From a bacterium (GTDB lineage: Bacteria > Patescibacteriota > Minisyncoccia > Phycocordibacterales > UBA6899): a stretch of DNA of 64,000 nucleotides. The stretch covers positions 33,772 through 97,771 of the forward strand of contig JAYUQG010000019.1 of the NCBI GenBank assembly GCA_043756865.1. The letters run 5' to 3'. Positions 2,830-29,836 of the stretch are shown here, one piece after another (within the stretch, counting starts at the first letter, position 1; every line of letters begins with the position of its first letter). The notes beneath the pieces were generated by a model. It did not search any database and was not told the DNA's origin. It saw only the letters and a program-made list of their open reading frames with translations. The position numbers were made by a program, and so were the translations under genes.

Positions 2830-4338
2830 ATGAAATTAATATCTAAATCAAAGTTTCTTCAATATCTCGAGTGTCCAAAGGATACATGGTTTCTGCTGCA
2901 TATGCCGAACCTTCCGGAATTCGAGGTATCGACTTCTGAGCAAGGCATAATGGATCAGGGGAATGTCGTTGAAGAGTATGCAAAGAAGCTCAAAATATTT
3001 GCTGGGTATATTGAGGTCGAGAAACGGGGAAGAGAAGCAGATGAGGAAATTAGAAAACTTCTATCTCAAAAGGTTCCAGCCATATATCAACCCACCTTTG
3101 TTGCTGATGGATTTGTCATTCGTTGTGACTTCCTTGTGTGGAACAACAATGAAAGGAAGTGGGACCTGTATGAGGTGAAGGGCACTAATTCAAAAAAGGA
3201 TGAAGGGGGTCCACGGGACCACATCTCTGATATCGCATTTCAGGCAATCGTACTTGATCGCGCCGGTGTTTCCATTGGTAATAAATACATCGTCCATCTT
3301 AATAATGAGTATATTCGTGGCGACGAGTTGGATGTCGAACAGCTTTTTATTGTGAGCGACAGTACTGCTCAGGTAAAAGAAATGCTTGATGTTACTTCAG
3401 CACAAATGGAAAAGGCTAAAGAGTATCTCAATCAAGAAAATGAGCCGAAGGATGGTTGTGATTGTCATTTTAATGGTCGCAGTAGGCACTGCGACACGTT
3501 TGAGCGTTCACACCCCGAGATACCTGAATATTCCATACACGATATCTCGCGCATTGGGCTAAAGCCAGACAAGTTGATTCAGCTCATCACCGATGGAATT
3601 TATCATCTCGAGGATATCGACGACACATCAGATTTTAGTGTTATTCAGCAGAACCAAATTCATACCCACAAGACGAAGAAGGAAATTATTGATGTAAACG
3701 AGATTGCCAAGATTCTTGATGGTTATAAATATCCACTATACTTTTTTGATTACGAAACATTTGCGCCAGCGGTACCGATATACCCAGGATATGGAACATA
3801 TCGTCGTATCCCGATACAGTTCTCTTTGCACATCATAGACGAAAGGGGTGGTGCACTCCGTCACGTTGATTATGTACATACTGAAAACTCGGATCCATCT
3901 ATTTCAGTAGCCAAAATACTAGCTGATACGATTGATCCGAATGGCACTGTTCTTGCGTGGAATGTGGGGTTTGAAAAAGGTGTTACAAAAGAGCTTTCTG
4001 AACGCTTGCCGGAGTACAAAATTATACTCGATAGAATTTGTGATCAAATGCAGGATTTGCGTGATGTTTTTTCGAAACAACACTATGTGCATAAAGACTT
4101 TTGTGGGAGTTCAGGGGTGGGGGCTGTTATGGAGGCATTGTTGCCACATATGACATATGACCATCTGCCATATACGGGAAACGATGTTGGTTTCGTCTGG
4201 TGGAAGGATATTGTGAACGACGGAGCAAGTCCTGCTGATCGTGAAAAGAAGACGCACCTCATCCGTGAATACTGCAAACAAGATACTTTTGTAATGGTCG
4301 AAATCTTCCGTATCTTGAGTGATATTGCCAGAAATTAA
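2830..4338 (+). CDS. DUF2779-type nuclease-family protein (N-terminal PD-(D/E)xK / Cas4-RecB-like fold)
   Basis: N-terminus ISKSKFLQYLECPKDTWF resembles the DUF2779 family. A ..D..YEVKGT.. E-x-K motif is present, as is FFDYETFAPAVPIY. 502 aa. Confidence 0.6.
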   Translation: MKLISKSKFLQYLECPKDTWFLLHMPNLPEFEVSTSEQGIMDQGNVVEEYAKKLKIFAGYIEVEKRGREADEEIRKLLSQKVPAIYQPTFVADGFVIRCDFLVWNNNERKWDLYEVKGTNSKKDEGGPRDHISDIAFQAIVLDRAGVSIGNKYIVHLNNEYIRGDELDVEQLFIVSDSTAQVKEMLDVTSAQMEKAKEYLNQENEPKDGCDCHFNGRSRHCDTFERSHPEIPEYSIHDISRIGLKPDKLIQLITDGIYHLEDIDDTSDFSVIQQNQIHTHKTKKEIIDVNEIAKILDGYKYPLYFFDYETFAPAVPIYPGYGTYRRIPIQFSLHIIDERGGALRHVDYVHTENSDPSISVAKILADTIDPNGTVLAWNVGFEKGVTKELSERLPEYKIILDRICDQMQDLRDVFSKQHYVHKDFCGSSGVGAVMEALLPHMTYDHLPYTGNDVGFVWWKDIVNDGASPADREKKTHLIREYCKQDTFVMVEIFRILSDIARN

Positions 4339-4454
4339 TTTTGCTTTACGCCGATTAGTAATGGTTGTAGGGTAATGATTGCCGAGGGTGCATACGGGAG
4401 ATTGTCATGCATCGATCCCACTTGGCATAAAATGCAAAATATCAAAATAAATAT

Positions 4455-5666
4455 ATGAATGAAATTATTTGCCCAAATTGTAAAAAAGCTTTCAAGGTTG
4501 ACGAGACCGGATTTGCCGATATTTTAAAGCAAGTCCACGATCATGAGTTTGAAAAAGAACTAAATTCACGTGAGGAAATGCTAAAAAAAGATAAAGAAAA
4601 TGCAGTTAAACTCGCCGAGGCAAATATTACGAACTCACTGCAGAAAGACATTGCAAAGAAGGATGCTGAACTAGCCGAAATAAAATCCAAAATTAATAAC
4701 GCAGAGCTTGAGAAAAAACTTGCAGTCACTGAAGCGGTCAATAAAATTGAAAAAGAGCGCGATGAACTAGCTGGCGAGCTGAAAAGTAAAGATGCTGAGA
4801 AACAACTACTCGAGACATCACTAAAAGATAAATATACTACTGAGCTCAAGACCAAGGACGATATCATCAAGATGAAAGATGAGGAAATTGCTCTTCGTAA
4901 AGATATGAAGGTCAAGCTTTCAACAAAAATGATCGGTGAAACACTTGAACAACACTGCGAAACCGAGTTTAACAAACTTCGCGCAACTGGATTTCAGAAT
5001 TCGTATTTCGAAAAAGACAACGACGCAAAAACTGGCAGTAAGGGTGATTATATCTATCGCGAAACCGATGATGCTGGTAATGAAATCATTTCTATTATGT
5101 TTGAAATGAAAAACGAAGGCGATGAAACAGCTACCAAGAAAAAGAACGAAGACTTTTTACGCGAACTTGATAAGGATCGCGCCGAAAAAAAGTGTGAGTA
5201 TGCCGTTCTAGTTACACTTTTGGAATCTGAAAATGAGCTTTATAACACCGGCATTGTTGATGTTTCTCATAAATACCAAAAAATGTATGTAGTTCGACCA
5301 CAATTTTTCATTCCCATGATAACTCTACTACGCAACGCATCCATGAACTCGCTTAAGTATAAAGCCGAGCTTGCGGTGGTAAGGAATCAGAACATCGATA
5401 TCACCAACTTCGAGGAAAATATGAACAAGTTTAAAGATGGCTTTAAAAAAAATTATGAGCTTGCTTCAAGCCGATTTAAAATAGCAATCGATGAAATCGA
5501 CAAAACCATTGACCATCTTCAGAAAACCAAAGATGCGCTCCTGTCCTCTGAAAATAACCTTCGTCTAGCGAACAATAAAGCAGAATATCTGACAATCAAA
5601 AAACTGACGCATGCCAATCCTACAATGACTAAAATGTTCGCAGATATTACTGATGCAAGTGAATGA
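4455..5666 (+). CDS. DUF2130 family protein (N-terminal CxxC zinc ribbon, long coiled coil, globular C-terminus)
   Basis: [32 protein letters not shown] is a typical DUF2130 N-terminus. A K/E-rich heptad region follows. C-terminal segment [22 protein letters not shown] has a possible D...ExK motif. Confidence 0.65.
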
Positions 5667-5733
5667 GTACAACCTTTTGACGTTCGGTCGGTTGTATTAC
5701 ATGCAGATAATTAAATAGTGCTTTATCCAGAGT

Positions 5734-6540
5734 GTGGCGAGAGACTGGCTCAACGACCCACCGGCAACCCTCAGTAATGAGAAGGTGCCAACCAGCCCCG
5801 AAAGGGGAAAGATAAACGTCGAAACTCTTTCCTTTGTACGGATGGAGTTTTTATTATTTAGGTTCAAAAACATGAGATCAACAACTATCAGTCGTGAAGC
5901 GTACCTTGGCAGTAAAGAGGAGAAGGAAATTTATGAATTAGAGGAAATAGACAGCAACAAGTATCGGCTACTCGGACGTGCCACAGGGATTAGCATGGAT
6001 CACTGCGTACTCATCGGATCAAATCACAAAAAAGAATTCTGGCACAGAGTGTATGGATTTCAGATTATACAAAATGAAAAAACAGAGAGAGCACTGCTTG
6101 AGGCGGCGCGGAAGATCAAGCCAGAGACCGAGTCGTATGTGACCGTGCAATTCTATGAACGGCTTTCAGAAGAAAAGTATATGTTTATACCCAAGCGCCT
6201 GGAAATTGCTGACCGTCCTGAGTTAAGCAACTTTCCACTTAATATATTGTTCGGCACGGCATGTCTCACTGACAACAACAGACAAATATTCGAAACGTCA
6301 GAATATGTCCCCGACCTCACCACCTTTACAGAGGAAGGTGATGAGCAGAAGTTGCGCTACTACAATTCACTCGATAACACGCGATGCCACTCTGCAGAGA
6401 TTGTGTATAACACAAAAGACCAATCGTATGTCGGTACGAAGTATCGCGGTGATAAACATGCCGGCATGGCTTTTGGTAATGCGTGGGATCCGTTCTTTGT
6501 GCATTTCACAATGCTGGGAGTAGGGGTTAACATTGATTAG
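5734..6540 (+). CDS. hypothetical protein (start uncertain)
   Basis: ORF-track start 5734 is GTG. In-frame ATGs lie at 5842 (MEFLLF) and 5872 (MRSTT; AGGT 11 nt upstream). No motif recognised. The 5' 100 nt are unusually GC-rich. Confidence 0.4.
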   Translation: MARDWLNDPPATLSNEKVPTSPERGKINVETLSFVRMEFLLFRFKNMRSTTISREAYLGSKEEKEIYELEEIDSNKYRLLGRATGISMDHCVLIGSNHKKEFWHRVYGFQIIQNEKTERALLEAARKIKPETESYVTVQFYERLSEEKYMFIPKRLEIADRPELSNFPLNILFGTACLTDNNRQIFETSEYVPDLTTFTEEGDEQKLRYYNSLDNTRCHSAEIVYNTKDQSYVGTKYRGDKHAGMAFGNAWDPFFVHFTMLGVGVNID

Positions 6541-6960: not shown

Positions 6961-9606
6961 ATGATTATCAAGGGCATATGTCACAGGTGTCATAATTATG
7001 GGGATATCCAGCCGAACGGATATACCATGGAGGGTATTTGTGAAAATTGTATCAAGGGCGCCCAGCGCGAAAAAATACAAGAGCAGGAAAGGGTAGATAA
7101 AGAGCGACAAGAAAGAATTATCGCCGCTCTTGCACCAGCACAAGCTCTCCTGTCAGGTGGGAATATCATCGGCGCAGACCAGGTTGCTCTTGAGCAAGGA
7201 TCGGACGAATTGCTTGATGAATACGAAAAAATTAAGTCTAAGTATATACAAAAGGATTTACGAAACTTGGAGAAAGAACTCGAGGTGGGTGAAGGATATT
7301 TTGACGATGAAAAGGCCGTTGCTCTTTCTAAAACAGGAAAAAATATCCTTGTTCAAGCGCGAGCTGGTTCGGGGAAGACGACTGCAATAGCGTTGCGAGT
7401 GCGCCACCTAATTAAATTTTACGGTGCGAAGCCCGAAGAAATACTCATTCTTGCATTTAACAGGAAGGCAGCAGAAGAGTTTCGACTACGAATCAATAGC
7501 TACTTCAAAGGATCAAATCAAATTGCTACGGAATCTAACACACTAACATTCCATGCTCTCGCGCGTAGAATAGCAAATACTACAAAGAACATATTGCAGG
7601 ATGAGAGCAGGGATGGGAGCGAGGAGGGACGACATGGTGAAGACAAGAAGTTACAGATTGATTTTGTGCGAGAATGTTTTAATAAGGTAGAAAAAGAAGG
7701 ACATGGTCTTATCGAAAAACTTTTCTATCTATTTTTAAAATCGGCGTCTGAAAAAATTGGTGGCTTATTTAGAAACAGCGAGGACTACTATCTATATTTA
7801 CGAAACCTACAACACGTAACGATAGCTGGAGAGATTGTTAAGTCAAGAGGGGAGAAGTATATTGCCGATTTTCTATTCGAGCATCGAGTTACAAAAAATG
7901 GAAGGGAAATTGAATATGCATATGAGCGCAACATTAAAAAGAATATTAATGCAACTCGTCCATATAGCCCCGACTTCTCACTATTTTTTGTTGAAGATGA
8001 GGAGAAATTAGACCTTCAGGCCGTTGTCGAATTCTTTGGTTTTACCGAAAGTTATCCTGGGTACCCCGGGTTTTTTGAATCGCGGGCTGCGTCCAGGTCA
8101 TATCTAAACGAAGCAGAGCAAAAAAGAATATTATTTCGAGATAAGGACATGAAGCTGGTTGAAATGAACGCCAATGACCTGACATCTTCTGCAGATGTTA
8201 AATTAGAAAATAAGGAAGACGCAAACCGGCAGTGGTTTGAGGAAATCCTTCGACAGCGACTTACGCGGTCTGGTTTCGATATTTCTAAAGAGTGCCTAAG
8301 TATTAAGGAAATACTTGCAAAAATTCCCAAGGTGGAAAGAAGAAAAAAAGCATTGGTAAAACAAATAACGCAATTCATTAACAAGGCTCAAAAAATATCT
8401 TACGATCCGGATACGATCAGAACAATTGCGGGAAAAGAGAAGGAAAACGGAAGATTGAGTAAGCGCACAGAGTATTTTATTAAAATGGCATGTCGAGTAT
8501 ATGAGGAATATCATTCCAGACTGGAGAAGGAGCCGTTCACTGACTTCGACGGACTTCTTGTTGATGCAATAAAGAGAATTAAAAATGAAGGTAGCGTCTG
8601 CAAGATATTGCCCAAGGGAGGAAAGGGAGAGTCCCAAGATATAGGAAACATAAAATACATACTTATTGACGAGTACCAGGACTTTTCGAAATTATTTTGC
8701 GAGCTTATTGATGCAATCAGAACAAATAATCCACAAGTTTCATTTTTTTGTGTCGGAGATGATTGGCAGGCTATCAATGCATTTGCGGGCTCAGATTTAG
8801 AATATTTTGATAACTTTGAAAAATATTTTGTTGGCGGCCGTCGAACAAAGTTGCTGACGAACTATCGTAGTTGTGCACACATAATCGAGCATGCTAATTG
8901 TCTAATGAGGGGCAGGGGTGATGATGGAAAACCACAAGCACAAAAAGCTTTCGGTAGAGTGTATCTCATGTCGTTGCTTTGGGTTGAGAACAGACGGGAT
9001 CAAGAATATGAAGCAGAGTTTTTAGAAGATGAAAAATATAGGTCGGCTGCAAAGTTGCTTCTGGGACTTGAGGATGCTGATAAAGCAGCCCCATTTGAAC
9101 TTGTCTCTTACTTAAAAACCGTCGAGAAGGTTGTAAATGATTTGCCGTCGGATAAAAACATCTGCCTACTATTTCGTGGCAACCACATTCGTGGGTCCGA
9201 AATAACCAAATTCACAGAACAAATCCGTGCATGGACATCAGGTAATAAAAATAGAGTCATATGTTCGACGGCCCATGGATTTAAGGGAAAGGAATGCGAC
9301 GCAATCGTTGTGGTTGATGCAAACCATAGAAGTTATCCAAAGTTTCATCCCGACAATGAGCTAATGGAAATACTCGGCGTAACGTTGTCGAAGGTGATAG
9401 ACGAGGAGCGTCGCCTATTCTATGTGGCAATTACGAGAGCAAAGGAAAGTTTATATTTGCTATATGACAACGGTGCGACGGTTGGTATATCGGATTTTAT
9501 TGGAGAAATTGAAAAAGGTGGCTGGAATTATGAGTTAATGTCATCACGTGGCTCAAGTAAGAAGCTAGACGAGGAGCTAGATATGGGTGATGAAATTGCC
9601 TTTTAA
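6961..9606 (+). CDS. SF1 UvrD/PcrA-like DNA helicase with N-terminal zinc ribbon and large 1B-region insertion
   Basis: N-terminal CHRCHNYG..CENC. Walker A AGSGKTT. Motif II YILIDEYQDF, motif III VGDDWQAINAFAGS, motif IV NYRS, motif V TAHGFKGKECD, motif VI FYVAITRAKESLYL. About 400 aa inserted between motifs Ia and II. Confidence 0.8.
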   Translation: MIIKGICHRCHNYGDIQPNGYTMEGICENCIKGAQREKIQEQERVDKERQERIIAALAPAQALLSGGNIIGADQVALEQGSDELLDEYEKIKSKYIQKDLRNLEKELEVGEGYFDDEKAVALSKTGKNILVQARAGSGKTTAIALRVRHLIKFYGAKPEEILILAFNRKAAEEFRLRINSYFKGSNQIATESNTLTFHALARRIANTTKNILQDESRDGSEEGRHGEDKKLQIDFVRECFNKVEKEGHGLIEKLFYLFLKSASEKIGGLFRNSEDYYLYLRNLQHVTIAGEIVKSRGEKYIADFLFEHRVTKNGREIEYAYERNIKKNINATRPYSPDFSLFFVEDEEKLDLQAVVEFFGFTESYPGYPGFFESRAASRSYLNEAEQKRILFRDKDMKLVEMNANDLTSSADVKLENKEDANRQWFEEILRQRLTRSGFDISKECLSIKEILAKIPKVERRKKALVKQITQFINKAQKISYDPDTIRTIAGKEKENGRLSKRTEYFIKMACRVYEEYHSRLEKEPFTDFDGLLVDAIKRIKNEGSVCKILPKGGKGESQDIGNIKYILIDEYQDFSKLFCELIDAIRTNNPQVSFFCVGDDWQAINAFAGSDLEYFDNFEKYFVGGRRTKLLTNYRSCAHIIEHANCLMRGRGDDGKPQAQKAFGRVYLMSLLWVENRRDQEYEAEFLEDEKYRSAAKLLLGLEDADKAAPFELVSYLKTVEKVVNDLPSDKNICLLFRGNHIRGSEITKFTEQIRAWTSGNKNRVICSTAHGFKGKECDAIVVVDANHRSYPKFHPDNELMEILGVTLSKVIDEERRLFYVAITRAKESLYLLYDNGATVGISDFIGEIEKGGWNYELMSSRGSSKKLDEELDMGDEIAF

Positions 9607-14105: not shown

Positions 14106-15356
14106 TTATCTCCAGCCCGCTTCTTTGGCGGTTATGAGGTTATAAAGTGAGCGCGCAAGCCAGAACGGTGCGATAAGGCCATAAAGTAACACAAAATAGA
14201 GCATATCACGAGAAAACGTAAGTCTCTTTACCGCCATGCGTGTGCCCATTACCATAAAGAAAATAGTAGCAAAAAACAAGCTATAGACGATTAACCTTTT
14301 GAATTCAAGGTTAAGCGCAAACCAGTCGAAGTTCGGCAGGCCAAAATTGAAATGAAATCCTATAGCACTGTATTGTAAGTACTTTTCGTAAAAAAGAATA
14401 AATAGATTCTTAATATATAGTGCACAGAAAAAGAGAGCGATAAATATCGAGAAAAATGCAAAGGGGAGCGTAAGCAGACCCAGATTACCGTACTTGCGGT
14501 TAAAGAACATGAAACGATACTGGAAAAGTGCATTTTTTAGGAAGCCCGTTACCCAACGTACACGTTGTGTGTAAAGCGCGCGCGGCGTGGGGGGGGAGAC
14601 CGTATACACGAGCGCAGTGTGCGAATTCTCAATCTTCATACGATGAGACTGCATGCGCAGTGCCATTTCCATGTCCTCGGTGCTGTATCCATGCACAAAA
14701 CCTCCAATTTTCTCAAAAACGGACCGGCGGTAGATAGAAAAGGGGCCAGGTGTAACATAGAGCCCATTAATCCTGCTAAACACCTTGCGTGTAAACTCTC
14801 CTATCATGTACTCAGTAGACTGAATCCTGCGAAGAACGTTGTCGGGATTATGAATTTGCACAGATGGGGTTACTGCCATAACCTCTGCGTCGTCAAAGTA
14901 TGGGATAATTTCGATTAGGGCCTGATTATCCACGTACGAATCAGCATCAAGACACCCGACGAGGTCACTTGTGGTGTGCGTCAGACCCAGATTCATGGCC
15001 GTATATTTACCTCCATTCTCTTTTGTAAAGACTCGAATTTGGGGGTGTCCATCAAATCGCCTTGCTACCTGCAGAGTGTTGTCTGTAGAGCCATCGTCTA
15101 TGATGTAGATGAAAAGACGGTCTTTGGGGTACTCAAGTGCCAGCAGTGAGTCAACAGTACCAAGTATGGTTTCTCCCTCATTCCAAGCGGGAACCATAAT
15201 GGTGACACTGGGGTATTTTCCGGGCATGCGTTGCTTTCTGGTTGCCGAATGTTCAAATCTTTCCTTGTCTTCAAAATACGTGACAAGCAGAAAAACCTCA
15301 AAATACATGATAAGGAAGAGTAATCCATAGACAGGTAGGGAAAAAAGTTGCTCCAT
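14106..15356 (-). CDS. processive family-2 glycosyltransferase (cellulose/chitin/hyaluronan-synthase-like, membrane integrated)
   Basis: VTIMVPAWNEGE, IIDDGSTDNT, CLDADSYVDN (DxD), QRVRWVTG (QxxRW). Multiple TM helices at both ends. ORF-track start 15458 is TTG; ATG for MEQLF at 15356. Confidence 0.8.
   Translation of the reverse strand: MEQLFSLPVYGLLFLIMYFEVFLLVTYFEDKERFEHSATRKQRMPGKYPSVTIMVPAWNEGETILGTVDSLLALEYPKDRLFIYIIDDGSTDNTLQVARRFDGHPQIRVFTKENGGKYTAMNLGLTHTTSDLVGCLDADSYVDNQALIEIIPYFDDAEVMAVTPSVQIHNPDNVLRRIQSTEYMIGEFTRKVFSRINGLYVTPGPFSIYRRSVFEKIGGFVHGYSTEDMEMALRMQSHRMKIENSHTALVYTVSPPTPRALYTQRVRWVTGFLKNALFQYRFMFFNRKYGNLGLLTLPFAFFSIFIALFFCALYIKNLFILFYEKYLQYSAIGFHFNFGLPNFDWFALNLEFKRLIVYSLFFATIFFMVMGTRMAVKRLTFSRDMLYFVLLYGLIAPFWLARSLYNLITAKEAGWR
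14589..14596. repeat. G8/C8 homopolymer inside the GT2 synthase gene
   Basis: gtGGGGGGGGag read directly; encodes SPPTP on the minus strand. Confidence 0.9.
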
Positions 15357-18705: not shown

Positions 18706-19923
18706 ATGAGAAATATCAGGGTACTAATGTTTGGCTGGGAATTCCCCCCGCATAATAGCGGTGGTCTTGGAACAGCCTGCTATGGACTGACCAAGGGGCT
18801 CACCCTTGCAAATGTTTCGATTACATTTGTATTACCAAAACGCCTCAGTGGTTTCGACCACGATTTTCTCAAAATTGTTTTTGCGAATATTCGCAATATC
18901 AAGCTACGCAGTATCACCAGTCTCATACATCCTTACATTACGTCTGAGAGATACGATGAATACTTGCGCACCGTACCCGAGGGTGCGATCTATGGACTCA
19001 ATTTGTTTGACGAAGTTCGGCGATATGGACTGCAGGCACGTATTATTGCGGCAGAAGAACCACACGACATTATTCACGCTCATGATTGGCTATCGTTTAG
19101 AGCAGGCATTGAAGCGAAACGTGTTTCAGGCAAGCCGCTTGTGGTGCACGTCCATGCCACAGAGTTTGATCGCACTGCAGGTCACCCAAACCAGTACATC
19201 TACGAAGAGGAGCGCCGGGGATTACACGCCGCAGACTGTATTATTGCGGTGTCACAGCACACCAAAAACGTAATCGTTGAACATTACGGCATCGATGCGA
19301 GTCGCGTAGCAGTAGTACACAACGGAATCGACATGGCAGACCACCGCAGATCGCTTCCGCCCGCGCTTGATAACATCCGTCACCACGGGAAAAAGATTGT
19401 TCTTTTTGTGGGGCGCATCACCATTCAGAAAGGACCGGACTATTTTATAAAGGTTGCGAAGCGCGTCCTTGAATACGACAAGAACGTTCTGTTTGTTATT
19501 TCAGGAGCAGGTGACATGGAGCACCAGATTATCAAGCTTGCCTCAAACATGGGACTCTCGGACAGCATTGTGTTTGCAGGGTTCGTACGTGGAGACGACC
19601 TCATGAAACTCTACCGTGCCGCAGACCTCTATGTTATGCCATCGGTGTCGGAACCGTTCGGTCTTACCGCACTAGAGGCACTTGCAAACGGTACCCCCAT
19701 TCTTGTCTCCAAGCAGTCGGGGGTTTCAGAAGTGCTTACACATGCGCTTAAGTCTGATTTTTGGGATATTGACGACATGGCAGACAAAATCATCAACGTT
19801 GTCGGTAGTAAAGGCCTTCAGGAGACACTTGGCGAGTTGGGTTCAAAAGACGTTGAGCACGTTACCTGGGAATCTGCAGCAGGGAAGTGTGTCTCCATTT
19901 ACCAGAATGCTATGAGAAATTAG
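18706..19923 (+). CDS. glycosyltransferase GT4/GT5, glycogen(starch)-synthase-like
   Basis: MFGWEFPPHNSGGLGTACYGL (archaeal-type glycogen synthase N-motif). EPFGLTALEA. Adjacent to the GH57 and GH15 genes. Confidence 0.7.
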   Translation: MRNIRVLMFGWEFPPHNSGGLGTACYGLTKGLTLANVSITFVLPKRLSGFDHDFLKIVFANIRNIKLRSITSLIHPYITSERYDEYLRTVPEGAIYGLNLFDEVRRYGLQARIIAAEEPHDIIHAHDWLSFRAGIEAKRVSGKPLVVHVHATEFDRTAGHPNQYIYEEERRGLHAADCIIAVSQHTKNVIVEHYGIDASRVAVVHNGIDMADHRRSLPPALDNIRHHGKKIVLFVGRITIQKGPDYFIKVAKRVLEYDKNVLFVISGAGDMEHQIIKLASNMGLSDSIVFAGFVRGDDLMKLYRAADLYVMPSVSEPFGLTALEALANGTPILVSKQSGVSEVLTHALKSDFWDIDDMADKIINVVGSKGLQETLGELGSKDVEHVTWESAAGKCVSIYQNAMRN

Positions 19924-19986
19924 TGTGCGTCATGGCGCTGAATCAAAGACGCAATACGTTTTGGATTAGTTTATAACTTTTATCAT

Positions 19987-21303
19987 ATGCCCTCAGTCTG
20001 TTTCTATTTTCAAGTGCATCAACCATACCGCGTCAAGAAGTACCGGATTTTTGATGTGGGCAACGATCACGAGTATTTTAATGACCGCTCTGACCGCGAC
20101 ATCAACAACGAAAAAATCTTGCACAAGGTCGCGAACAAGTGTTATCTCCCGACCAATGCACTTATGCTCGAGCTTCTTGAGCAGCACCCAAAGTTTAAAA
20201 TTGCATATTCTTTTTCTGGTGTTTTCCTCGACCAACTCGAGCAATTCTCCCCAGAAACGTTGCTCTCTTTCCAAAAGCTTGTGGCGACAGGGCGAGTCGA
20301 AATTCTCGACGAGACCTACTACCACTCACTCTCATTTCTCTATTCCAAAGAGGAATTCGTGAAGCAAGTAGAAATGCATCGCGCAAAAGTGAAAAAGCTT
20401 TTTGGCGTAACCCCAACAGTATTTCGTAACACCGAGTTGATATACAACAATGAGCTCGCTGCGTACGTGGAGGGCATGGGCTACAAGGCTATCATTGCAG
20501 AAGGAGCCGACCACCTACTAGGATGGCGCAGTCCGAATTTTCTCTATAAATCTCCAGGGACAAAGAAAATCAAGACCCTACTCAAGAATTACAAGCTTTC
20601 CGACGATATTGCGTTTCGCTTTTCGTCGCGTGACTGGGCTGAGTGGCCACTCACATCTGAGAAGTTTGCTGCATGGATAGGCAATGTAAATGGCAATGGC
20701 AATATTGTGAATCTTTTCATGGATTATGAAACTTTTGGAGAGCACCAATGGGAGGACACGGGCATTTTCAATTTTATGCGAGCGCTTCCGGGTGCAATAC
20801 TGGCAAATCCCGATAATGATTTCGTTACACCATCCGAAGCCGCAGAGAAATACCCCGTTGTAGGTGAGTTTGATGCACACAACTTTGTCTCATGGGCAGA
20901 TGTGGAGCGCGACCTTTCTGCGTGGCTTTCCAACAGTATGCAGCACGAGGCCATCAACAACATTTACGCAATGGAAGCAGATGTTCTTGCTACGGGAGAC
21001 CAGAGCATCATCGAGGACTGGCGCAAACTCCAGACTTCCGACCACTACTATTACATGTGTACAAAATGGTTTGCCGATGGCGATGTGCACAAGTATTTTA
21101 ACCCCTACGACACCCCCTACGAGGCATTTATTGCATTCAACAATGTGATTCACGATCTTCGAATACGTATTGAGGCACGTAAAAAGACGCGACAAGCAAG
21201 CAAGAAACCCGCGAAAGCTGGGGTAACTCCAAAAAAAGTGGCGAAGAAAGTAGCCTCCAAGACATCAAAGAAGGTTGCGAAAAAGAAGGTGGTCAAGGAA
21301 TAG
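19987..21303 (+). CDS. glycoside hydrolase family 57 (alpha-amylase/4-alpha-glucanotransferase-like) with Lys/Ala-rich C-terminal tail
   Basis: CFYFQVHQPYR N-terminal GH57 signature. Tail KKTRQASKKPAKAGVTPKKVAKKVASKTSKKVAKKKVVKE. Confidence 0.75.
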   Translation: MPSVCFYFQVHQPYRVKKYRIFDVGNDHEYFNDRSDRDINNEKILHKVANKCYLPTNALMLELLEQHPKFKIAYSFSGVFLDQLEQFSPETLLSFQKLVATGRVEILDETYYHSLSFLYSKEEFVKQVEMHRAKVKKLFGVTPTVFRNTELIYNNELAAYVEGMGYKAIIAEGADHLLGWRSPNFLYKSPGTKKIKTLLKNYKLSDDIAFRFSSRDWAEWPLTSEKFAAWIGNVNGNGNIVNLFMDYETFGEHQWEDTGIFNFMRALPGAILANPDNDFVTPSEAAEKYPVVGEFDAHNFVSWADVERDLSAWLSNSMQHEAINNIYAMEADVLATGDQSIIEDWRKLQTSDHYYYMCTKWFADGDVHKYFNPYDTPYEAFIAFNNVIHDLRIRIEARKKTRQASKKPAKAGVTPKKVAKKVASKTSKKVAKKKVVKE

Positions 21304-21352
21304 CATTAAATTTTATTTTGAGTTTTACCCATGCTAAACAGCGCATGGTGAA

Positions 21353-23350
21353 ATGTTTTGCTATACTATCCTTATGGCGAAGTCCCTTGCTTTTGGAAAT
21401 GGAACAGTACTCGTTTGCACTGACCAGTACGCACGCGTGCGTGATTTGTATTTTCCCTACATTGGCCTAGAGAATCACGCAGGCGGGAGCAATGCGCATC
21501 GTCTCGGAGTGTGGGTGGACGGGCAATTTTCTTGGCTCGACGATGGATCGTGGGTTATCGATGTACGCTCAGACACTGCATATACTGGCCTTACCAGTGC
21601 GTCGTCTGAGCGACTTGGCATATCGCTACATTTCACTGATGTCCTTTTTAATGAAAAGAACATTTTTTTGCGTAAAATTAAAGTACACAATACGCATTCT
21701 CGCGAACGCGAAGTGCGCTTCTTTGTAAATCACCAATTCGAGATTTATCACTCTGAAAAAGGGGACACTGCATTTTATGACCCCGAGAATAACACGGTGG
21801 TTCACTATGAGGGCAGGCGGGCATTTCTCGTGAATGCATGGCAAGACGATCACGGATTCGATGATTATACCGTCGGAATTTTCCAAATTGAAGGCAAAGA
21901 GGGGACCTACAAGGATGCGGAGGACGGGGAACTTGCGAAAAATGTAATTGAGCATGGTCGTGTGGATTCGACAATTGGCATCAAGCTTGTCATTCCCGAG
22001 GACAGCGTAAAGACATTTCACTATTGGTTCACCGTTGGTGAGTCCGTTGACGAGGTGCGTGAACTGAACAAATATGTACTTGCGCACTCACCAGACGCGG
22101 TGATGAAATCTGCGCGTGACTATTGGCATGCGTGGGTGGAGCGCAACGAGTGGAACTACTACGGCCTCGGCGATAACCTCATTGATTTATTCAAGAAGTC
22201 ACAGTTTTTTCTACGCTCACACGTTGATAACCACGGGGGTATTATCGCTTCGGGAGATTCCGACATGCTTCAGGGGGGGCGAGACACCTACGCCTACGTG
22301 TGGCCACGCGATGCAGCATATGTTTCGGTTACATTAGACTGGCTTGGTGACCGTCATAGCGCAAGGAAATTTTTCGATTTCTGCAACTCTGTTATTACCA
22401 AGGACGGCTATCTGATGCATAAGTATCGCGCAGATTCCTCGCTCGGCTCATCTTGGCATGGATATGTTGTGGACGGAAAACCTGAGCTTCCTATACAGGA
22501 GGACGAGACTGCACTCATACTTTGGGCGCTTTGGGAGCATTGGCTGGCATCAAAGGATCTTGATTACATTGAGTCCATATACAACTCATTTATCGTCAAA
22601 GCAGCTACTTTCCTTGTGTCCTATCGAGACCCATATACCGGTCTACCGAAATCCTCATATAACCTCTGGGAGGAGAAGTTTGGCGTACATACGTATACCG
22701 CCGCGACTGTCTATGCAGGCCTCAAGGTTGCCGCACGATTTGCAGAAATACTTGGTAAAGATCGCTCAGAACATAACTTTGATGACGTTGCTGAAGAAAT
22801 GCGCCATGCAATCATCAAGCACCTCTACGATGAGGAGAAAGGATATTTTATCCGATCTGTTTCGCACGATAAGGATGGAAAACTCACCTACGACAGAACA
22901 CTCGATGCCTCGAGTGCATATGGCATATTTCTTTTCGGTGTACTGCCCAAGGACGATGCAAGACTTGTGCGTGCCATCAACCTCACCAAAGAGCGTCTCA
23001 CTATAAAAACACCGGTACTTGGTATGGCTCGTTATGAAGGTGACCAATACTATCGCAGAGTTGAGGACGTTCCCGGTAACCCATGGTTTATTACCACACT
23101 GTGGTACACGCAATATGCGATTAGTATCGCGAAAAGTGACCATGACTTGGATCAGGTACGCAGCGACCTGAACTGGGTTGAGCGTTCTTCGTTACGATCG
23201 GGAATCCTTTCTGAACAATTGAATCCGCACACGCGTGAACAGCTTGGCGCAGCACCACTTACATGGAGTCATGCCGAATACATTCGTACGGTTATTATGT
23301 ACATGCGTAAGCTCACGGAACTCGGGCTCATAAAAAAACATGTCGAATAA
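21353..23350 (+). CDS. glycoside hydrolase family 15 (glucoamylase/glucodextranase-like)
   Basis: GIIASGDSDMLQGGRDTYAYVWPRDAAY (GH15 YxYxWxRD motif). 665 aa. Alternative ATG at 21374. Confidence 0.8.
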   Translation: MFCYTILMAKSLAFGNGTVLVCTDQYARVRDLYFPYIGLENHAGGSNAHRLGVWVDGQFSWLDDGSWVIDVRSDTAYTGLTSASSERLGISLHFTDVLFNEKNIFLRKIKVHNTHSREREVRFFVNHQFEIYHSEKGDTAFYDPENNTVVHYEGRRAFLVNAWQDDHGFDDYTVGIFQIEGKEGTYKDAEDGELAKNVIEHGRVDSTIGIKLVIPEDSVKTFHYWFTVGESVDEVRELNKYVLAHSPDAVMKSARDYWHAWVERNEWNYYGLGDNLIDLFKKSQFFLRSHVDNHGGIIASGDSDMLQGGRDTYAYVWPRDAAYVSVTLDWLGDRHSARKFFDFCNSVITKDGYLMHKYRADSSLGSSWHGYVVDGKPELPIQEDETALILWALWEHWLASKDLDYIESIYNSFIVKAATFLVSYRDPYTGLPKSSYNLWEEKFGVHTYTAATVYAGLKVAARFAEILGKDRSEHNFDDVAEEMRHAIIKHLYDEEKGYFIRSVSHDKDGKLTYDRTLDASSAYGIFLFGVLPKDDARLVRAINLTKERLTIKTPVLGMARYEGDQYYRRVEDVPGNPWFITTLWYTQYAISIAKSDHDLDQVRSDLNWVERSSLRSGILSEQLNPHTREQLGAAPLTWSHAEYIRTVIMYMRKLTELGLIKKHVE

Positions 23351-26512: not shown

Positions 26513-26540
26513 AAAAAACCGCCATGGTTAGGCGGTTTTA
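26513..26540. terminator. bidirectional hairpin between convergent genes
   Basis: aaaaaACCGCCatggttaGGCGGTttta. It overlaps the folA stop codon. Confidence 0.45.
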
Positions 26541-27034
26541 CGTTCGAGATTCAAGAACTTTTGTTTGTACAGATTGCGTTCATCGGCCTGATGCACCGTA
26601 AGCGAAGCGCGGTGCCACTCGAGTGGGTTGTATTCTGGAAAAAATGCATCACAGACAAAACAATCATCCACTTCGGTAATGAACATACGGTTTGCCTTGG
26701 GAAGTGCCTCTTTGTAGATGCTTGCTCCACCCATGATGAATACATCTTCGCTACTACCTTCCCTTGCTGCGACCCGTAGTGCTTCATGGAGCGAGTGGAC
26801 GTGCCAAACGCCTTTTGCGTGCCACTCGGGATCACGGGTTAGGACGATATTCATCCGGTTGGGAAGTGGTTTCTTGATTGAATCAAAAGTCTTCCGTCCC
26901 ATGATGACGGTACGCCCTGTTGTGAGTTCACGAAAGCGCTTCATGTCGCGTGGAATCTTTTCTGCCCACGGTACGGCATTGTTGATTCCAATGCCAAGGT
27001 TTCTATCCATCGCTGCTATGAGTGAAATGATCAT
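26528..27034 (-). CDS. folA: dihydrofolate reductase
   Basis: MIISLIAAMDRNLGIGINNAVPW...GRKTFDSI...LTRDPEWH, classic DHFR. ORF-track start 27064 is TTG; ATG at 27034. Confidence 0.85.
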   Translation of the reverse strand: MIISLIAAMDRNLGIGINNAVPWAEKIPRDMKRFRELTTGRTVIMGRKTFDSIKKPLPNRMNIVLTRDPEWHAKGVWHVHSLHEALRVAAREGSSEDVFIMGGASIYKEALPKANRMFITEVDDCFVCDAFFPEYNPLEWHRASLTVHQADERNLYKQKFLNLERKTA

Positions 27035-27174
27035 GCTGTGTCCTTTTGACGATACCTGTCTCAACTTTCAAGCTTTCCACAGACTCGCATAAAACAGATA
27101 TTTTGTCACCAGTACCAGAATCGCATATTTACTGCTAAAATACGCACAGTTTTGTACAGCAAAATAAGGTAACC

Positions 27175-28551
27175 ATGGACAAAGAACACACACTGCAATC
27201 ACTGCGACATCACGTAAAAGAACTTAAAGGGGGCGGTCTTGTGCTTCTCCTTGATACGGGTGCGCAGATAACACCTGAGGCAGAGGCGATGCTCCAAGCA
27301 CTGTACTCGCGCTCACCTGCAACAGTCCACGAACATCTGCGTACTATCGCCGAGAAGGGCGCAGAAAAATTCATGGCGAGCTTCTATGTGGGCTACGGCC
27401 ACAAGTCTATTGGCGACTGCGGAACGATAACGCTCTTTATCGAAGGTATTTCGATGCTCACGGCAAAGGCAATCCAGGACTGGATGCTCTATTCAGGTCA
27501 GGAAGTTTCCACGCGGTACGTCGATTTTTCCACCCAACGATTTGAAGACCCACTCGCATCAGCAACATCAGCTAAAGCACTAGAACGACTACGGGAGTTT
27601 TATATTTCCGCACTCCCACTTCTCGAGGATGACCTGCAGAAGCGCTACCCGATGGGTGAGGGTGAAAAAGAAACAATGTACGTGAAGGCCATCAAGGCTC
27701 GCGCGTTCGATATTCTCCGCAGCTTTCTGCCCGCTGGTGCGACCACAAGCGTTGCGTGGCATACCAACCTCCGTCAGGCCGCAGACAAAATTGCCCTCCT
27801 TCGCCATCATCCACTCAAGGAAGTGCGCGATGTTGCAGACGGCATTGAAGCAGTATTGATTGAAGGGTACCCAAGCTCATTTGGTCATAAGCGCTACGAT
27901 GCCACAGAGGGGTACAATGCGTCGTGGATGAATGATGCCTACTATCTCGAAGATGACGCATGCCCTGCATTTGCGCTGACGCATGACCTCATCGCCTACG
28001 AGGAATTCACCGCGCGCCCAAACCTTGCCAACATCCTGCGAGGACGTCCACCGAAAACAGAATTACCGAAGTTTTTGGGAGAACTTGGCACAATACAGTT
28101 TCGTTTTCTCCTCGACTTTGGTTCCTTTCGGGACATTCAACGTCAGCGTGCGGTGCATCAGCGCATGCCACTACTCACGTATGTGCATGGTTTTGAGCCA
28201 TGGTACTTGGAACAGCTTCCTCTGGAACTTCGCAGTCGTGCTGAAGCACTACTCACCGAGAATCAGCGTGAAGTCCAAGCACTTACTGCAAGTAAAACAG
28301 AAATGCAATATTTCATTCCAATGGGATACCTTGTAGCAAACAGACTGACCGGTGATATTCCTGCGTTGGTGTATCTTGCAGAACTACGTGCAGGAAGTAC
28401 GGTACACCCAACACTTCAGATTCGCGCAAGAGAAATTGCCACAGCACTTGAAGAGAAGCTTTCCGAACACGGACTCAAGCTTTTTATCGAAGGCGAGTCA
28501 GGAAGGTTCGATGTCAAACGTGGTGCCCAAGATATAATAAAAAAAGAATAG
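27175..28551 (+). CDS. ThyX-like FAD-dependent thymidylate synthase, long tandem-domain form (tentative)
   Basis: WHTNLRQAADKIALLR resembles the ThyX WxxNxRxxxxFLxLR motif. QDWMLYSGQEVSTRY resembles RQWFRHRxxSxNExSxRY but without RHR. The second half has FRDIQRQR. 458 aa, twice the usual ThyX length. Confidence 0.45.
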   Translation: MDKEHTLQSLRHHVKELKGGGLVLLLDTGAQITPEAEAMLQALYSRSPATVHEHLRTIAEKGAEKFMASFYVGYGHKSIGDCGTITLFIEGISMLTAKAIQDWMLYSGQEVSTRYVDFSTQRFEDPLASATSAKALERLREFYISALPLLEDDLQKRYPMGEGEKETMYVKAIKARAFDILRSFLPAGATTSVAWHTNLRQAADKIALLRHHPLKEVRDVADGIEAVLIEGYPSSFGHKRYDATEGYNASWMNDAYYLEDDACPAFALTHDLIAYEEFTARPNLANILRGRPPKTELPKFLGELGTIQFRFLLDFGSFRDIQRQRAVHQRMPLLTYVHGFEPWYLEQLPLELRSRAEALLTENQREVQALTASKTEMQYFIPMGYLVANRLTGDIPALVYLAELRAGSTVHPTLQIRAREIATALEEKLSEHGLKLFIEGESGRFDVKRGAQDIIKKE

Positions 28552-28562
28552 TGAGCGTAGTT

Positions 28563-28597
28563 AAAAACCGAGGCATACCCTCGGTTTTTTCTTTTTT
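28563..28597 (+). terminator. rho-independent terminator
   Basis: aaaaACCGAGGcatacCCTCGGtttttt. Confidence 0.6.
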
Positions 28598-28618
28598 GAA
28601 CTATGTTATAGTGCCGTC

Positions 28619-29836
28619 ATGAGTGACTTTGGCTTTACGATTGTAAAAAAACTAGGTGGAAACTCGCTTGGCAGAGCTGGGGTCATACATACTCCTCACG
28701 GGGATATTGAAACACCGGCATTTATCGTTGTTGGCACGAAGGCCAGCGTAAAGGCGCTGTCCCCAGAACAAGTAAAAGGTCTCGGTGCGCAGGCAGTACT
28801 CGCGAATACGTATCACTTATACCTTGAACCAGGGGAGGCCATCGTCGAAGCACATGGAGGCTTTGGGAGAATGATGGACTGGCATGGCCCAACATTTACA
28901 GACAGTGGAGGATTCCAAGTATTCTCCTTGGGCGCTGCGATGGGTCACGGTGTCTCCAAAATTGCCACAAGCGAAGCAATTGCGAAAAGTGAAGCGGAAG
29001 GAGGGGAGGAAAAAACACATGATAAATTGGCAAAGATTGATGACGACGGAGTCACGTTTCGCTCGTACATCGACGGAAGTGAACATCGCTTCACATCAGA
29101 GCGAAGCATGGAAATTCAACACGCCCTTGGAGCGGACATGTTTTTTGCATTTGATGAGTGCACGAGTCCACTTGCACCTCGTGCATACCAACGCACCGCG
29201 CTAAACCGCACTCATGCATGGGCAAAACGGAGTTTCGATGCACACAAGCGTCTTGGTGTCTCTGTCGCGACAGGGCAACAACAGGCGCTGTTTGGCGTGG
29301 TGCAAGGTGGAGCCCACGAAGACATGCGACGCGAAAGCGCTCGAGTGCTTGGGGCATTAGACTTCGATGGATTCGGAATCGGGGGAAGTTTTACAAAAAA
29401 CGATATTGGAACAGCAGTGCGCTGGGTAAATGAAGAATTACCTGAGTCAAAACCGCGTCATCTACTCGGCATCGGGGAGCCCATCGACTTGTTTCTTGGA
29501 GTTGAAAATGGGGTAGACACTTTTGACTGTGTCGCACCGACGCGAATTGCACGAAATGGCGCACTTTACACAATTGATGGGCGCATCAATATATACAACG
29601 CAAAATTTAGAAACGATATGAGTCCAATATGTGCTGATACGACATGCGCGGCGCACGGCTATTCGAAAAGCTATCTTGCACACCTCTTTCGTGCCGAGGA
29701 GATGTATGCTGCGACAATTGCCTCAATACACAACCTTCATTTTATAGTAAATTTGGTAAAAAATATCCGCCAGTCGATTATGGACGGGCGGTTTGAGGAA
29801 TATAAAGCTGAGGTCATGTCGCGCTACTATAACTAA
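28619..29836 (+). CDS. tgt: queuine tRNA-ribosyltransferase
   Basis: LANTYHLYLEPG, FAFDECTSP, LLGIGEPIDLF, CADTTCAAHG..H zinc site. About 30-aa acidic insertion (KSEAEGGEEKTHDK). Confidence 0.85.
   Translation: MSDFGFTIVKKLGGNSLGRAGVIHTPHGDIETPAFIVVGTKASVKALSPEQVKGLGAQAVLANTYHLYLEPGEAIVEAHGGFGRMMDWHGPTFTDSGGFQVFSLGAAMGHGVSKIATSEAIAKSEAEGGEEKTHDKLAKIDDDGVTFRSYIDGSEHRFTSERSMEIQHALGADMFFAFDECTSPLAPRAYQRTALNRTHAWAKRSFDAHKRLGVSVATGQQQALFGVVQGGAHEDMRRESARVLGALDFDGFGIGGSFTKNDIGTAVRWVNEELPESKPRHLLGIGEPIDLFLGVENGVDTFDCVAPTRIARNGALYTIDGRINIYNAKFRNDMSPICADTTCAAHGYSKSYLAHLFRAEEMYAATIASIHNLHFIVNLVKNIRQSIMDGRFEEYKAEVMSRYYN

Follow-up and report, generated by a model that had tools for sequence, protein, structure and literature searches.

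A predicted fused flavin-dependent thymidylate synthase of Patescibacteria whose two ThyX domains carry complementary active-site residues

The 458-aa product of a gene at positions 27175..28551 (+ strand) of the window, that is, the whole 64-kb stretch of DNA analyzed here, is probably (roughly 0.7) a ThyX-type flavin-dependent thymidylate synthase in which two ThyX domains are fused and carry complementary sets of active-site residues; of the four sites of a dimer, two would be complete and two dead. We call this predicted pseudo-heterodimeric fusion double ThyX. Canonical ThyX is a homotetramer, and three subunits contribute to each of its four active sites: subunit A supplies the RHR motif and the Arg174 equivalent, subunit B a Ser/Thr and the Arg165 equivalent, which contact the FAD phosphates, and subunit C the Ser88/Arg90/Tyr91 set (PMC6514825). 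Here after, residues of T. maritima ThyX are marked Tm (the reference sequence used was 100% identical to PDB 1KQ4) and those of M. tuberculosis ThyX Mtb, and all features inside the gene lie on the + strand.

The N-terminal ThyX domain (residues ~12-236, 27208..27882) is the counterpart of the subunit B and C contributions. Pfam Thy1 (PF02511) matched the protein in this half only, at 57.5 bits over residues 41-233 (cutoff 24.8), and hhalign aligned the half with T. maritima ThyX over 195 columns (E = 2e-4). Two motifs reported in the earlier note, W-x-x-N-x-R...LR and S..RY, were found here as W195-x-x-N198-x-R200...L209-R210 and S112-T-R114-Y115. The latter (27508..27519) aligned with Tm Ser88/Arg90/Tyr91, which act in dUMP binding and catalysis (PMC11940539, PMC8316439), and S-x-R-Y was kept in 315 of 322 relatives. 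By the same alignment, R182 (27718..27720; 311/322) corresponds to Tm Arg147, N198-L-R200 (27766..27774) to Tm Asn163/Arg165 (Mtb Arg190), and the invariant GHKSIGDCG loop (27397..27423) places H76 at Tm His53, S78 at Tm Thr55 (Mtb Ser71) and D81 at Tm Glu58. S78 and D81 of this loop were found in all 81 loci compared and H76 in 79; the loop is also the segment of lowest pLDDT in the monomer model, which fits a loop ordered by ligand or by a partner subunit. Weak Pfam matches to LexA_DNA_bind and HTH_20 at residues 7-63 were rejected, being below threshold and within the ThyX fold.

What the N-half lacks is the equivalents of RHR and Arg174. The position of the lost RHR is taken by D102-W103-M104 (27478..27486) in alignments with both C. 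glutamicum and T. maritima ThyX; position 102 was Asp in 81/81 loci, and none of the 322 members had RHR at this site. The loss had been proposed before as a replacement by MLY, and the loss itself holds, but MLY (residues 104-106) lies two residues off in these alignments. Tm R174 faces an alignment gap. The residues kept are S112/R114/Y115, S78, R182, R200, E110 and H76.

The C-terminal domain (residues 237-458, 27883..28548) is the counterpart of the subunit A contribution. R323-Q324-R325 (28141..28149), the RQR already noticed in the second half, is a Q variant of the ThyX RHR motif and aligned with Tm R78-H79-R80, which makes the FAD phosphate/ribityl and dUMP contacts. Position 324 was His in 73 and Gln in 8 of the 81 loci, and family-wide (n = 322) the motif read RHR in 247, RQR in 71 and R-(H/Q)-R in 318 members, canonical RHR being the consensus. 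R405 (28387..28389), present in 322/322 members and 80/80 genome loci, was matched by HMMER and hhalign alignments to Tm Arg174, which activates dUMP (PMC8316439), and is retained in this half only. With R323-Q/H-R325 and R405 the C-half keeps the subunit A set and nothing else of the site: equivalents of Ser88/Arg90/Tyr91, Arg147, Arg165 and His53/Thr55 were missing from its alignment to T. maritima ThyX. That hhalign alignment was weak (E = 0.007, probability 5.5%), so single equivalences other than RHR and R405 are less certain.

ThyX signatures had been said to occur twice, which does not hold at the motif level, since the C-half has neither W-x-x-N-x-R nor S-x-R-Y and gave no Pfam match. 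A check with the Thy1 HMM for two matches likewise returned the single N-half match, but the predicted structure of the protein has the three-dimensional ThyX fold, in the C-half as well. Because Pfam Thy1 also matched the C-halves of 23 of 32 relatives, the C-half is, on the predicted fold and on these relatives, a ThyX domain. BLASTP and hhalign gave no significant similarity between the two halves, even with the 322-sequence alignment, and sequence alone thus cannot demonstrate duplication. When PDB sequences were searched (phmmer, hmmsearch) with the protein and with profiles of the family and of the C-half, the C-half had no match and the N-half matched C. glutamicum ThyX weakly. Proteins of 100-360 aa matching the C-half profile were considered as free-standing halves and dismissed as truncated gene calls, because they begin either at arbitrary internal points or at the conserved Met252.

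Taken together, the equivalents of Tm R78, H79, R80, S88, R90, Y91, R165 and R174 each occur once per chain, divided between the halves, with Gln in place of H79 in this protein. S112, R114, Y115, S78, R182, R200, R323 and R325 were conserved in 81/81 loci, and the degenerate positions were conserved too (D102 81/81, L333 78/81, Q378 80/81). As judged from these alignments, the degeneration is complementary and matches the known subunit origin of the residue sets. The earlier note had suggested an intramolecular pseudo-dimer with one degenerate active site; fused, degenerate ThyX halves are indeed present, but the loss is not one-sided, both halves being degenerate in complementary ways.

A protein in which both domains fall short of essential residues might also be a catalytically dead ThyX pseudoenzyme with a structural, regulatory or nucleotide-binding role. 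Neither domain alone has the full RHR-x7-8-S motif with S-x-R-Y: the N-half has D-W-M in the RHR place and keeps S107...S112-T-R-Y, and the motif is complete only across both halves combined. The profile scores are low as well, NCBIfam TIGR02170 (thyX equivalog) giving 26.1 bits, far under its cutoff of 87.9, in addition to the modest Pfam score. Against this, the losses are exactly complementary by known subunit origin (PMC6514825), the kept residues are invariant or nearly so across 322 divergent sequences, a pattern typical of selection acting on an assembled site, and in these genomes it is this family that, linked to tmk, SHMT and dut, is the candidate for thymidylate synthase. We consider a dead enzyme highly improbable.

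For a working enzyme, the residue sets suggest the following assembly. An ancient duplication and fusion would have placed two ThyX domains in one chain, and two such chains would pair to form a pseudo-tetramer, its C-halves lying diagonal to each other and its N-halves filling the remaining positions. Of the four sites in this dimer of fusions, two would be complete and catalytic and two dead. The reaction would presumably be the usual one, in which NADPH reduces FAD and the methylene of CH2-THF passes through the flavin to dUMP, yielding dTMP and THF. A thymidylate synthase assembled otherwise, with one intra-chain site, a higher oligomer or 'dead' sites re-used for NADPH or an effector, is rather unlikely. 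The predicted monomer (pTM 0.88) does leave room for it, showing fixed packing of the N- and C-halves and not which canonical interface this packing mimics, and the conservation of D102, L333 and Q378 at degenerate positions hints at a retained role. Nevertheless, a canonical site takes three subunits and this chain has two domains, with the subunit B and subunit C sets both in the N-half, so that two N-halves, and hence at least two chains, are needed to complete a site. The dimer of fusions can be extended to a broader reading, to which we give slightly less than an even chance: most Patescibacteria (CPR) may make their thymidylate with an obligate 'half-of-sites' ThyX, a natural single-chain heterodimer whose two complete and two dead sites per pseudo-tetramer were fixed by duplication, fusion and complementary residue loss, and D102, L333 and Q378 at the dead sites may have been turned to a new use, for example in binding NADPH or an effector.

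The family is widespread. At least 527 species-level genomes carry the gene, the proteins fall into 1107 clusters at 50% identity, the residue split is near-invariant across the 322 relatives, and all named relatives are Patescibacteria, the closest from Ca. Lloydbacteria. Many database copies are unnamed or called 'hypothetical protein'. Chlamydia ThyX has about 529 aa, and relatives of 500-550 aa were checked as possible Chlamydia-type ThyX, a link that would have tied the family to a characterized enzyme; their database matches were to Patescibacteria only, including Absconditabacterales. Cluster names were uninformative on this identity. Our literature search found neither a biochemically characterized member of the family nor a description of any ThyX with a duplication or fusion, nor an account of how CPR bacteria synthesize thymidylate.

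The genes around double-thyX bear on its function. Among 81 loci, the neighbors included thymidylate kinase (60), SHMT (26), dCTP deaminase (25 plus 16), dUTPase (25) and dCMP deaminase (22), and one locus has an operon of double-thyX, DHFR, dUTPase, thymidine kinase and thymidylate kinase. In another, a thyA remnant lies 10 bp downstream of double-thyX, truncated to profile positions 205-266 of 266. These neighbors and the remnant support a working thymidylate synthase, as far as gene content can indicate. PolB, a ThyX homologue, methylates UMP/dUMP in polyoxin biosynthesis, and on its model double ThyX could be a ThyX-fold flavoenzyme that methylates another nucleotide or performs related chemistry instead of making dTMP. 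We regard such a role as quite unlikely, because the neighbors represent the dUMP-to-dTMP-to-dTDP pathway and SHMT with no secondary-metabolite cluster, a thyA remnant adjoins the gene in one locus, the gene is spread over so many genomes of minimal-metabolism organisms, and the dUMP-contacting residues (equivalents of Ser88, Arg90, Tyr91, Arg174 and Arg78) are all retained. No thyA was found in a search of the whole window, in agreement with the earlier note; the best tblastn match to ThyA (14397-14591, E = 0.18) lies inside a family 2 glycosyltransferase and was discarded as chance.

In the window, double-thyX is divergent from folA, encoding dihydrofolate reductase (DHFR; 26528..27034, - strand). 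Both reading frames and the intergenic region between them (27035..27174, exactly 140 bp) were verified as previously described. The folA product has 168 aa from the ATG at 27034, and the mechanical ORF reaches further, to a TTG at 27064. The Pfam DHFR_1 (PF00186) match (184 bits) covers profile positions 2-159 of 159, that is, full length, and the N-terminus (MIISLIAAMD...PW...D30...F34) is one that we take to resemble E. coli DHFR. The top NCBIfam models were DfrA3-like and type 3 DHFR (135 bits for type 3), all scoring below the exception or equivalog cutoffs, indicating an ordinary chromosomal FolA and no named resistance allele. A scan of the 140-bp region for a sigma-70-like promoter gave no match, and no Rfam family reached the gathering score there. 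Downstream of double-thyX, a terminator-like hairpin with a T-run (28563..28599, + strand; 11-bp stem with 5 G-C pairs) begins 12 nt past the stop codon, which suggests that the gene is transcribed alone, apart from tgt (28619).

The pairing of DHFR with ThyX had been called unexpected, an objection that falls away because DHFR is needed both to make folate de novo and to salvage oxidised folates, whichever type of thymidylate synthase is present (PMC1971073). Chlamydia trachomatis is listed as FolA-positive (PMC1971073), and all six tabulated Chlamydiae genomes have ThyX and none has ThyA (PMC5954106). Of 80 related loci, only 3 have DHFR next to double-thyX; the adjacency is a lineage-specific, ordinary pairing, with divergent linkage in Lloydbacteria only, plus one independent operon. 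It adds no puzzle and fits organisms obliged to reduce scavenged folate. Most likely the divergent DHFR is only a loose functional partner, which would reduce salvaged folate or DHF to THF and so fill a pool then cycled by SHMT and ThyX. Physical linkage of thymidylate synthase with DHFR is known from thyA-folA operons and bifunctional DHFR-TS, and the window is similar in this respect. The difference is that ThyA-linked DHFR recycles DHF from every turnover, whereas the product of ThyX is THF and DHFR here would serve pool entry only, by salvage or de novo synthesis.

ThyX is a target for antibacterial drugs, and as its active sites are shared by three identical subunits, the contribution of each subunit is hard to separate experimentally. 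A natural fusion with the residue sets on separate domains would allow asymmetric mutagenesis without engineering and would be a clear case of duplication, fusion and complementary loss turning a homo-oligomer into a pseudo-hetero-oligomer. If the 'half-of-sites' reading is true, double ThyX would be a structural class of thymidylate synthase not described before and a natural asymmetric scaffold for assigning subunit contributions in ThyX catalysis. A very large, poorly understood bacterial radiation appears to have it as its thymidylate synthase, and metabolic reconstructions of these organisms may miss it, given the sub-cutoff NCBIfam thyX score and the poor database naming.

We finally compared double ThyX with known systems. 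Canonical ThyX/FDTS (T. maritima TM0449, PDB 1O26/5CHP; M. tuberculosis Rv2754c, PDB 2AF6) is a single-domain protein of about 220-250 aa, to which double ThyX shows 12-21% sequence identity; each canonical subunit carries the whole motif set and the four sites are identical, whereas in double ThyX at most half would be complete. Among solved structures, the N-half profile matched best the 'atypical' ThyX of C. glutamicum (PDB 3FNN/3GE9; E = 0.11), which, however, has one domain and still carries RHR. PolB of Streptomyces cacaoi (PDB 4P5A) is also single-domain and belongs to antibiotic biosynthesis, in contrast to the primary dTMP metabolism around double ThyX. Thermus thermophilus Thy1 (PDB 6J61), a Foldseek match, is likewise longer than usual ThyX, but by its PDB title the addition is an extra C-terminal domain on a complete ThyX and not a second ThyX domain that shares the catalytic residues.

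The ORF listing places the DHFR gene at 26528-27034 on the minus strand, counted from its ATG (168 aa), and the double-thyX gene (458 aa) at 27175-28551 on the plus strand, with a gap of exactly 140 bp between them, as the earlier note had described. The 168-aa product matched the whole Pfam DHFR_1 profile with 184 bits, which identifies it as a full-length dihydrofolate reductase. Among the NCBIfam models it was closest in type to chromosomal type 3 DHFR, and it fell below the cutoff of every named resistance allele. A terminator-like hairpin (28563-28589) with a T-run lies 3′ of the double-thyX gene, before tgt at 28619.

Two Thy1 matches had been proposed as the check for a repeated ThyX, and Pfam gave one, at residues 41-233 (57.5 bits), with no Pfam match in the C-half (residues 237-458). 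The NCBIfam thyX equivalog reached 26 bits, short of its cutoff of 87.9, the similarity between the two halves was undetectable by BLASTP or profile-profile comparison, and the sole match in PDB sequence searches was a marginal one of the N-half to Corynebacterium glutamicum ThyX. When the C-halves of family members were scanned alone, Thy1 was matched in 23 of 32 (best E = 6.5e-7), and the AlphaFold2 monomer model of the whole protein, built from an input alignment of 60 sequences (pLDDT 86, pTM 0.88), displayed the identical strand and helix order in both halves. Because the model has the fold order twice and the C-halves of relatives match Thy1, we conclude that two ThyX domains are fused in tandem in this protein, and that in its lineage the second has diverged beyond the reach of HMM searches. 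Model confidence was lowest (pLDDT about 41) at GHKSIGDCG (27391-27420, residues 73-82), the family's most conserved motif, which is consistent with a loop that is ordered only with FAD, folate or a partner chain.

Diverse family profiles (322 sequences) were aligned with HMMER and hhalign to Thermotoga maritima ThyX (Tm; 100% identical to PDB 1KQ4/1O26), and the resulting residue equivalences agreed with an alignment anchored on the motifs and with the secondary-structure prediction. The N-half keeps H76/S78/D81 (Tm His53/Thr55/Glu58), S107, Q109 and E110 (Ser83, Asn85 and Glu86), S112/R114/Y115 (Ser88/Arg90/Tyr91), R182 (Arg147) and N198/R200 (Asn163/Arg165), has K98 at Arg74, and has lost Arg174 in an alignment gap. 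At the RHR motif (Tm 78-80) it carries D102-W103-M104, so that the 'MLY' reported in the earlier note is two residues off, while the RQR of the second half was correctly placed, at R323-Q324-R325. The C-half also keeps R319 (Arg74) and R405 (Arg174), and E303 (Glu58) as the only one of its triplet; it has lost Arg147 (Q378) and Arg165 (P396), is not conserved at Ser83, Asn85 and Glu86, and has non-conserved Leu/Thr/variable residues at Ser88/Arg90/Tyr91. In the Mycobacterium tuberculosis and Helicobacter pylori structures, subunit A of each site supplies RHR and the Arg174 equivalent, subunit B binds the FAD phosphates by a Ser (Tm Thr55) and the Arg165 equivalent, and subunit C supplies the Ser/Arg/Tyr triad (PMC6514825). 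Catalysis depends critically on Ser88, Arg90 and Tyr91, and dUMP is activated by Arg174 (PMC11940539, PMC8316439). With the subunit origin of each residue assigned from the literature, the residues retained in the C-half are precisely those of subunit A, and those retained in the N-half are precisely the sets of subunits B and C. The idea of an intramolecular pseudo-dimer thus holds for the two fused domains but is incomplete, as both halves are degenerate, in complementary fashion.

Since the subunit-B and subunit-C residues both lie in the N-half, a single chain would be unable to form a complete site, and we infer that the protein assembles as a dimer of fused chains. If the sites of the D2 tetramer are taken as (A,B,C), (B,A,D), (C,D,A) and (D,C,B), and N-halves occupy B and C while C-halves occupy A and D, two sites would be complete and two would lack every one of the residue sets. 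To a different oligomeric solution, or to dead sites put to new use, we assign a small but appreciable chance.

The split is widely conserved. Among the genome loci, S78, S112, R114, Y115, R182, R200, R323 and R325 were each found in 81 of 81 and R405 in 80 of 80, and at the lost positions other residues have become fixed (D102 in 81/81, L333 in 78/81, Q378 in 80/81). In the 322 diverse full-length members, S-x-R-Y was present in 315, R-(H/Q)-R in 318 (RHR 247, RQR 71) and R405 in all, and an N-half RHR in none. The RQR of the window is therefore a common family variant; in the genome set it is typical of a Lloydbacteria-related clade and a few others. That the protein is a dead pseudoenzyme is very improbable, as the losses in the two halves are exactly complementary and the remaining residues invariant.

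The family is large: with 90% clustering, the query matched over 4200 proteins, and the C-half profile matched 1107 clusters at 50% identity, the best 150 of which were all two-domain proteins or fragments thereof; family members are encoded in at least 527 species-level genomes. The closest named relatives of the 458-aa protein are from Candidatus Lloydbacteria (76% and 70% identity), which places the organism of the window in the Patescibacteria, and all informative organism names were of Patescibacteria (CPR), including Lloyd-, Colwell-, Kaiser-, Nomura-, Yonath-, Uhr-, Moranii-, Dojka-, Komeili- and Absconditabacteria and others; a few MAG records are deposited under other labels such as 'uncultured Gammaproteobacteria' and 'Burkholderiales'. 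One divergent, high-GC member (P0262, 547 aa, NCBI source) shares the split, with STRY in the N-half and QRHR in the C-half, has a low-complexity, frameshift-like C-terminal tail, and possibly lies beyond the usual CPR lineages. Long ThyX proteins also occur elsewhere, for example in Chlamydia.

Neighbors were counted in 80 related loci plus the window. Thymidylate kinase was found in 60 of the 81, SHMT in 26, dCTP deaminase in 25 and a long form of it in 16, dUTPase in 25, a dNMP-kinase-like protein in 24, dCMP deaminase in 22 and MazG in 9. Other recurrent neighbors, with no obvious link to the dTMP pathway, are ribosomal protein L11 and NusG (41 loci each, both identified by eye alone from their sequences) and, in 27 loci, a SIMPL/DUF541 protein. 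Parcubacteria GW2011_GWA2_36_10 (LBRC01000035.1, 358-3876) has a compact dTMP operon in the order double-thyX, DHFR (4-bp overlap), dUTPase, thymidine kinase and thymidylate kinase. In a Dojkabacteria locus (JAYRWD010000044.1), a 92-aa ORF 10 bp downstream of double-thyX (7366-7644) matched Pfam Thymidylat_synt (72 bits) over no more than its 62 C-terminal positions; this apparent thyA remnant suggests that thyA was replaced by the double thyX at this very site. The neighbors, the operon and the remnant point to conversion of dUMP to dTMP. A PolB-like action on a different substrate is unlikely, given this primary-metabolism neighborhood and the retained dUMP contacts. Within the 64-kb window, none of the pathway neighbors of the relatives was found, and no thyA, as the earlier note had stated; its housekeeping genes are pgi, a ROK kinase, an ion channel, tgt, uvrB, a two-component system, gdh and uvrA.

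Elsewhere in the window, a full-length SAM riboswitch (Rfam RF00162, 64 bits; 5720-5818, plus strand) overlaps the mechanical GTG start of an ORF without Pfam match (5734-6540, 268 aa), whose true start is probably downstream; this would be a CPR gene under SAM regulation that is so far uncharacterised. Upstream of pgi and the ROK kinase, a glycogen/alpha-glucan gene run (18706-23350) encodes a GT4/GT5-like glycosyltransferase, a GH57 enzyme and a GH15 glucoamylase-like enzyme, and indicates a putative storage-polysaccharide metabolism. Neighboring DUF2779 (502 aa) and DUF2130 (403 aa) proteins (2830-5666) lie upstream of a UvrD-like helicase.

The family assignment is already known, many members being labelled 'FAD-dependent thymidylate synthase' in databases; the literature searched, the coverage of which was incomplete, yielded no account of a fused ThyX with complementary degeneration of its halves. 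A major bacterial radiation apparently uses this protein as its standard thymidylate synthase. It offers a clean, testable example of how an active site is partitioned once genes have fused, and the enzyme is of interest both for its mechanism and for pharmacology.

The pairing with DHFR is a feature of the lineage and not of the family, because DHFR adjoins double-thyX in only 3 of the 80 related loci: two from Lloydbacteria with the divergent layout of the window, and the independent co-directional Parcubacteria operon. The earlier note regarded this pairing as unexpected should ThyX be the sole thymidylate synthase, but it is ordinary. The product of ThyX is THF (PMC11940539), and DHFR is still required to reduce DHF from de novo synthesis and salvaged folic acid or DHF (PMC1971073). 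Where biosynthesis is minimal, as in this organism, the simplest interpretation is that the DHFR has a salvage role, supplying the SHMT/ThyX cycle. Chlamydia trachomatis is listed as FolA-positive (PMC1971073), and the Chlamydiae are tabulated with ThyX in six of six genomes and ThyA in none of the six (PMC5954106).
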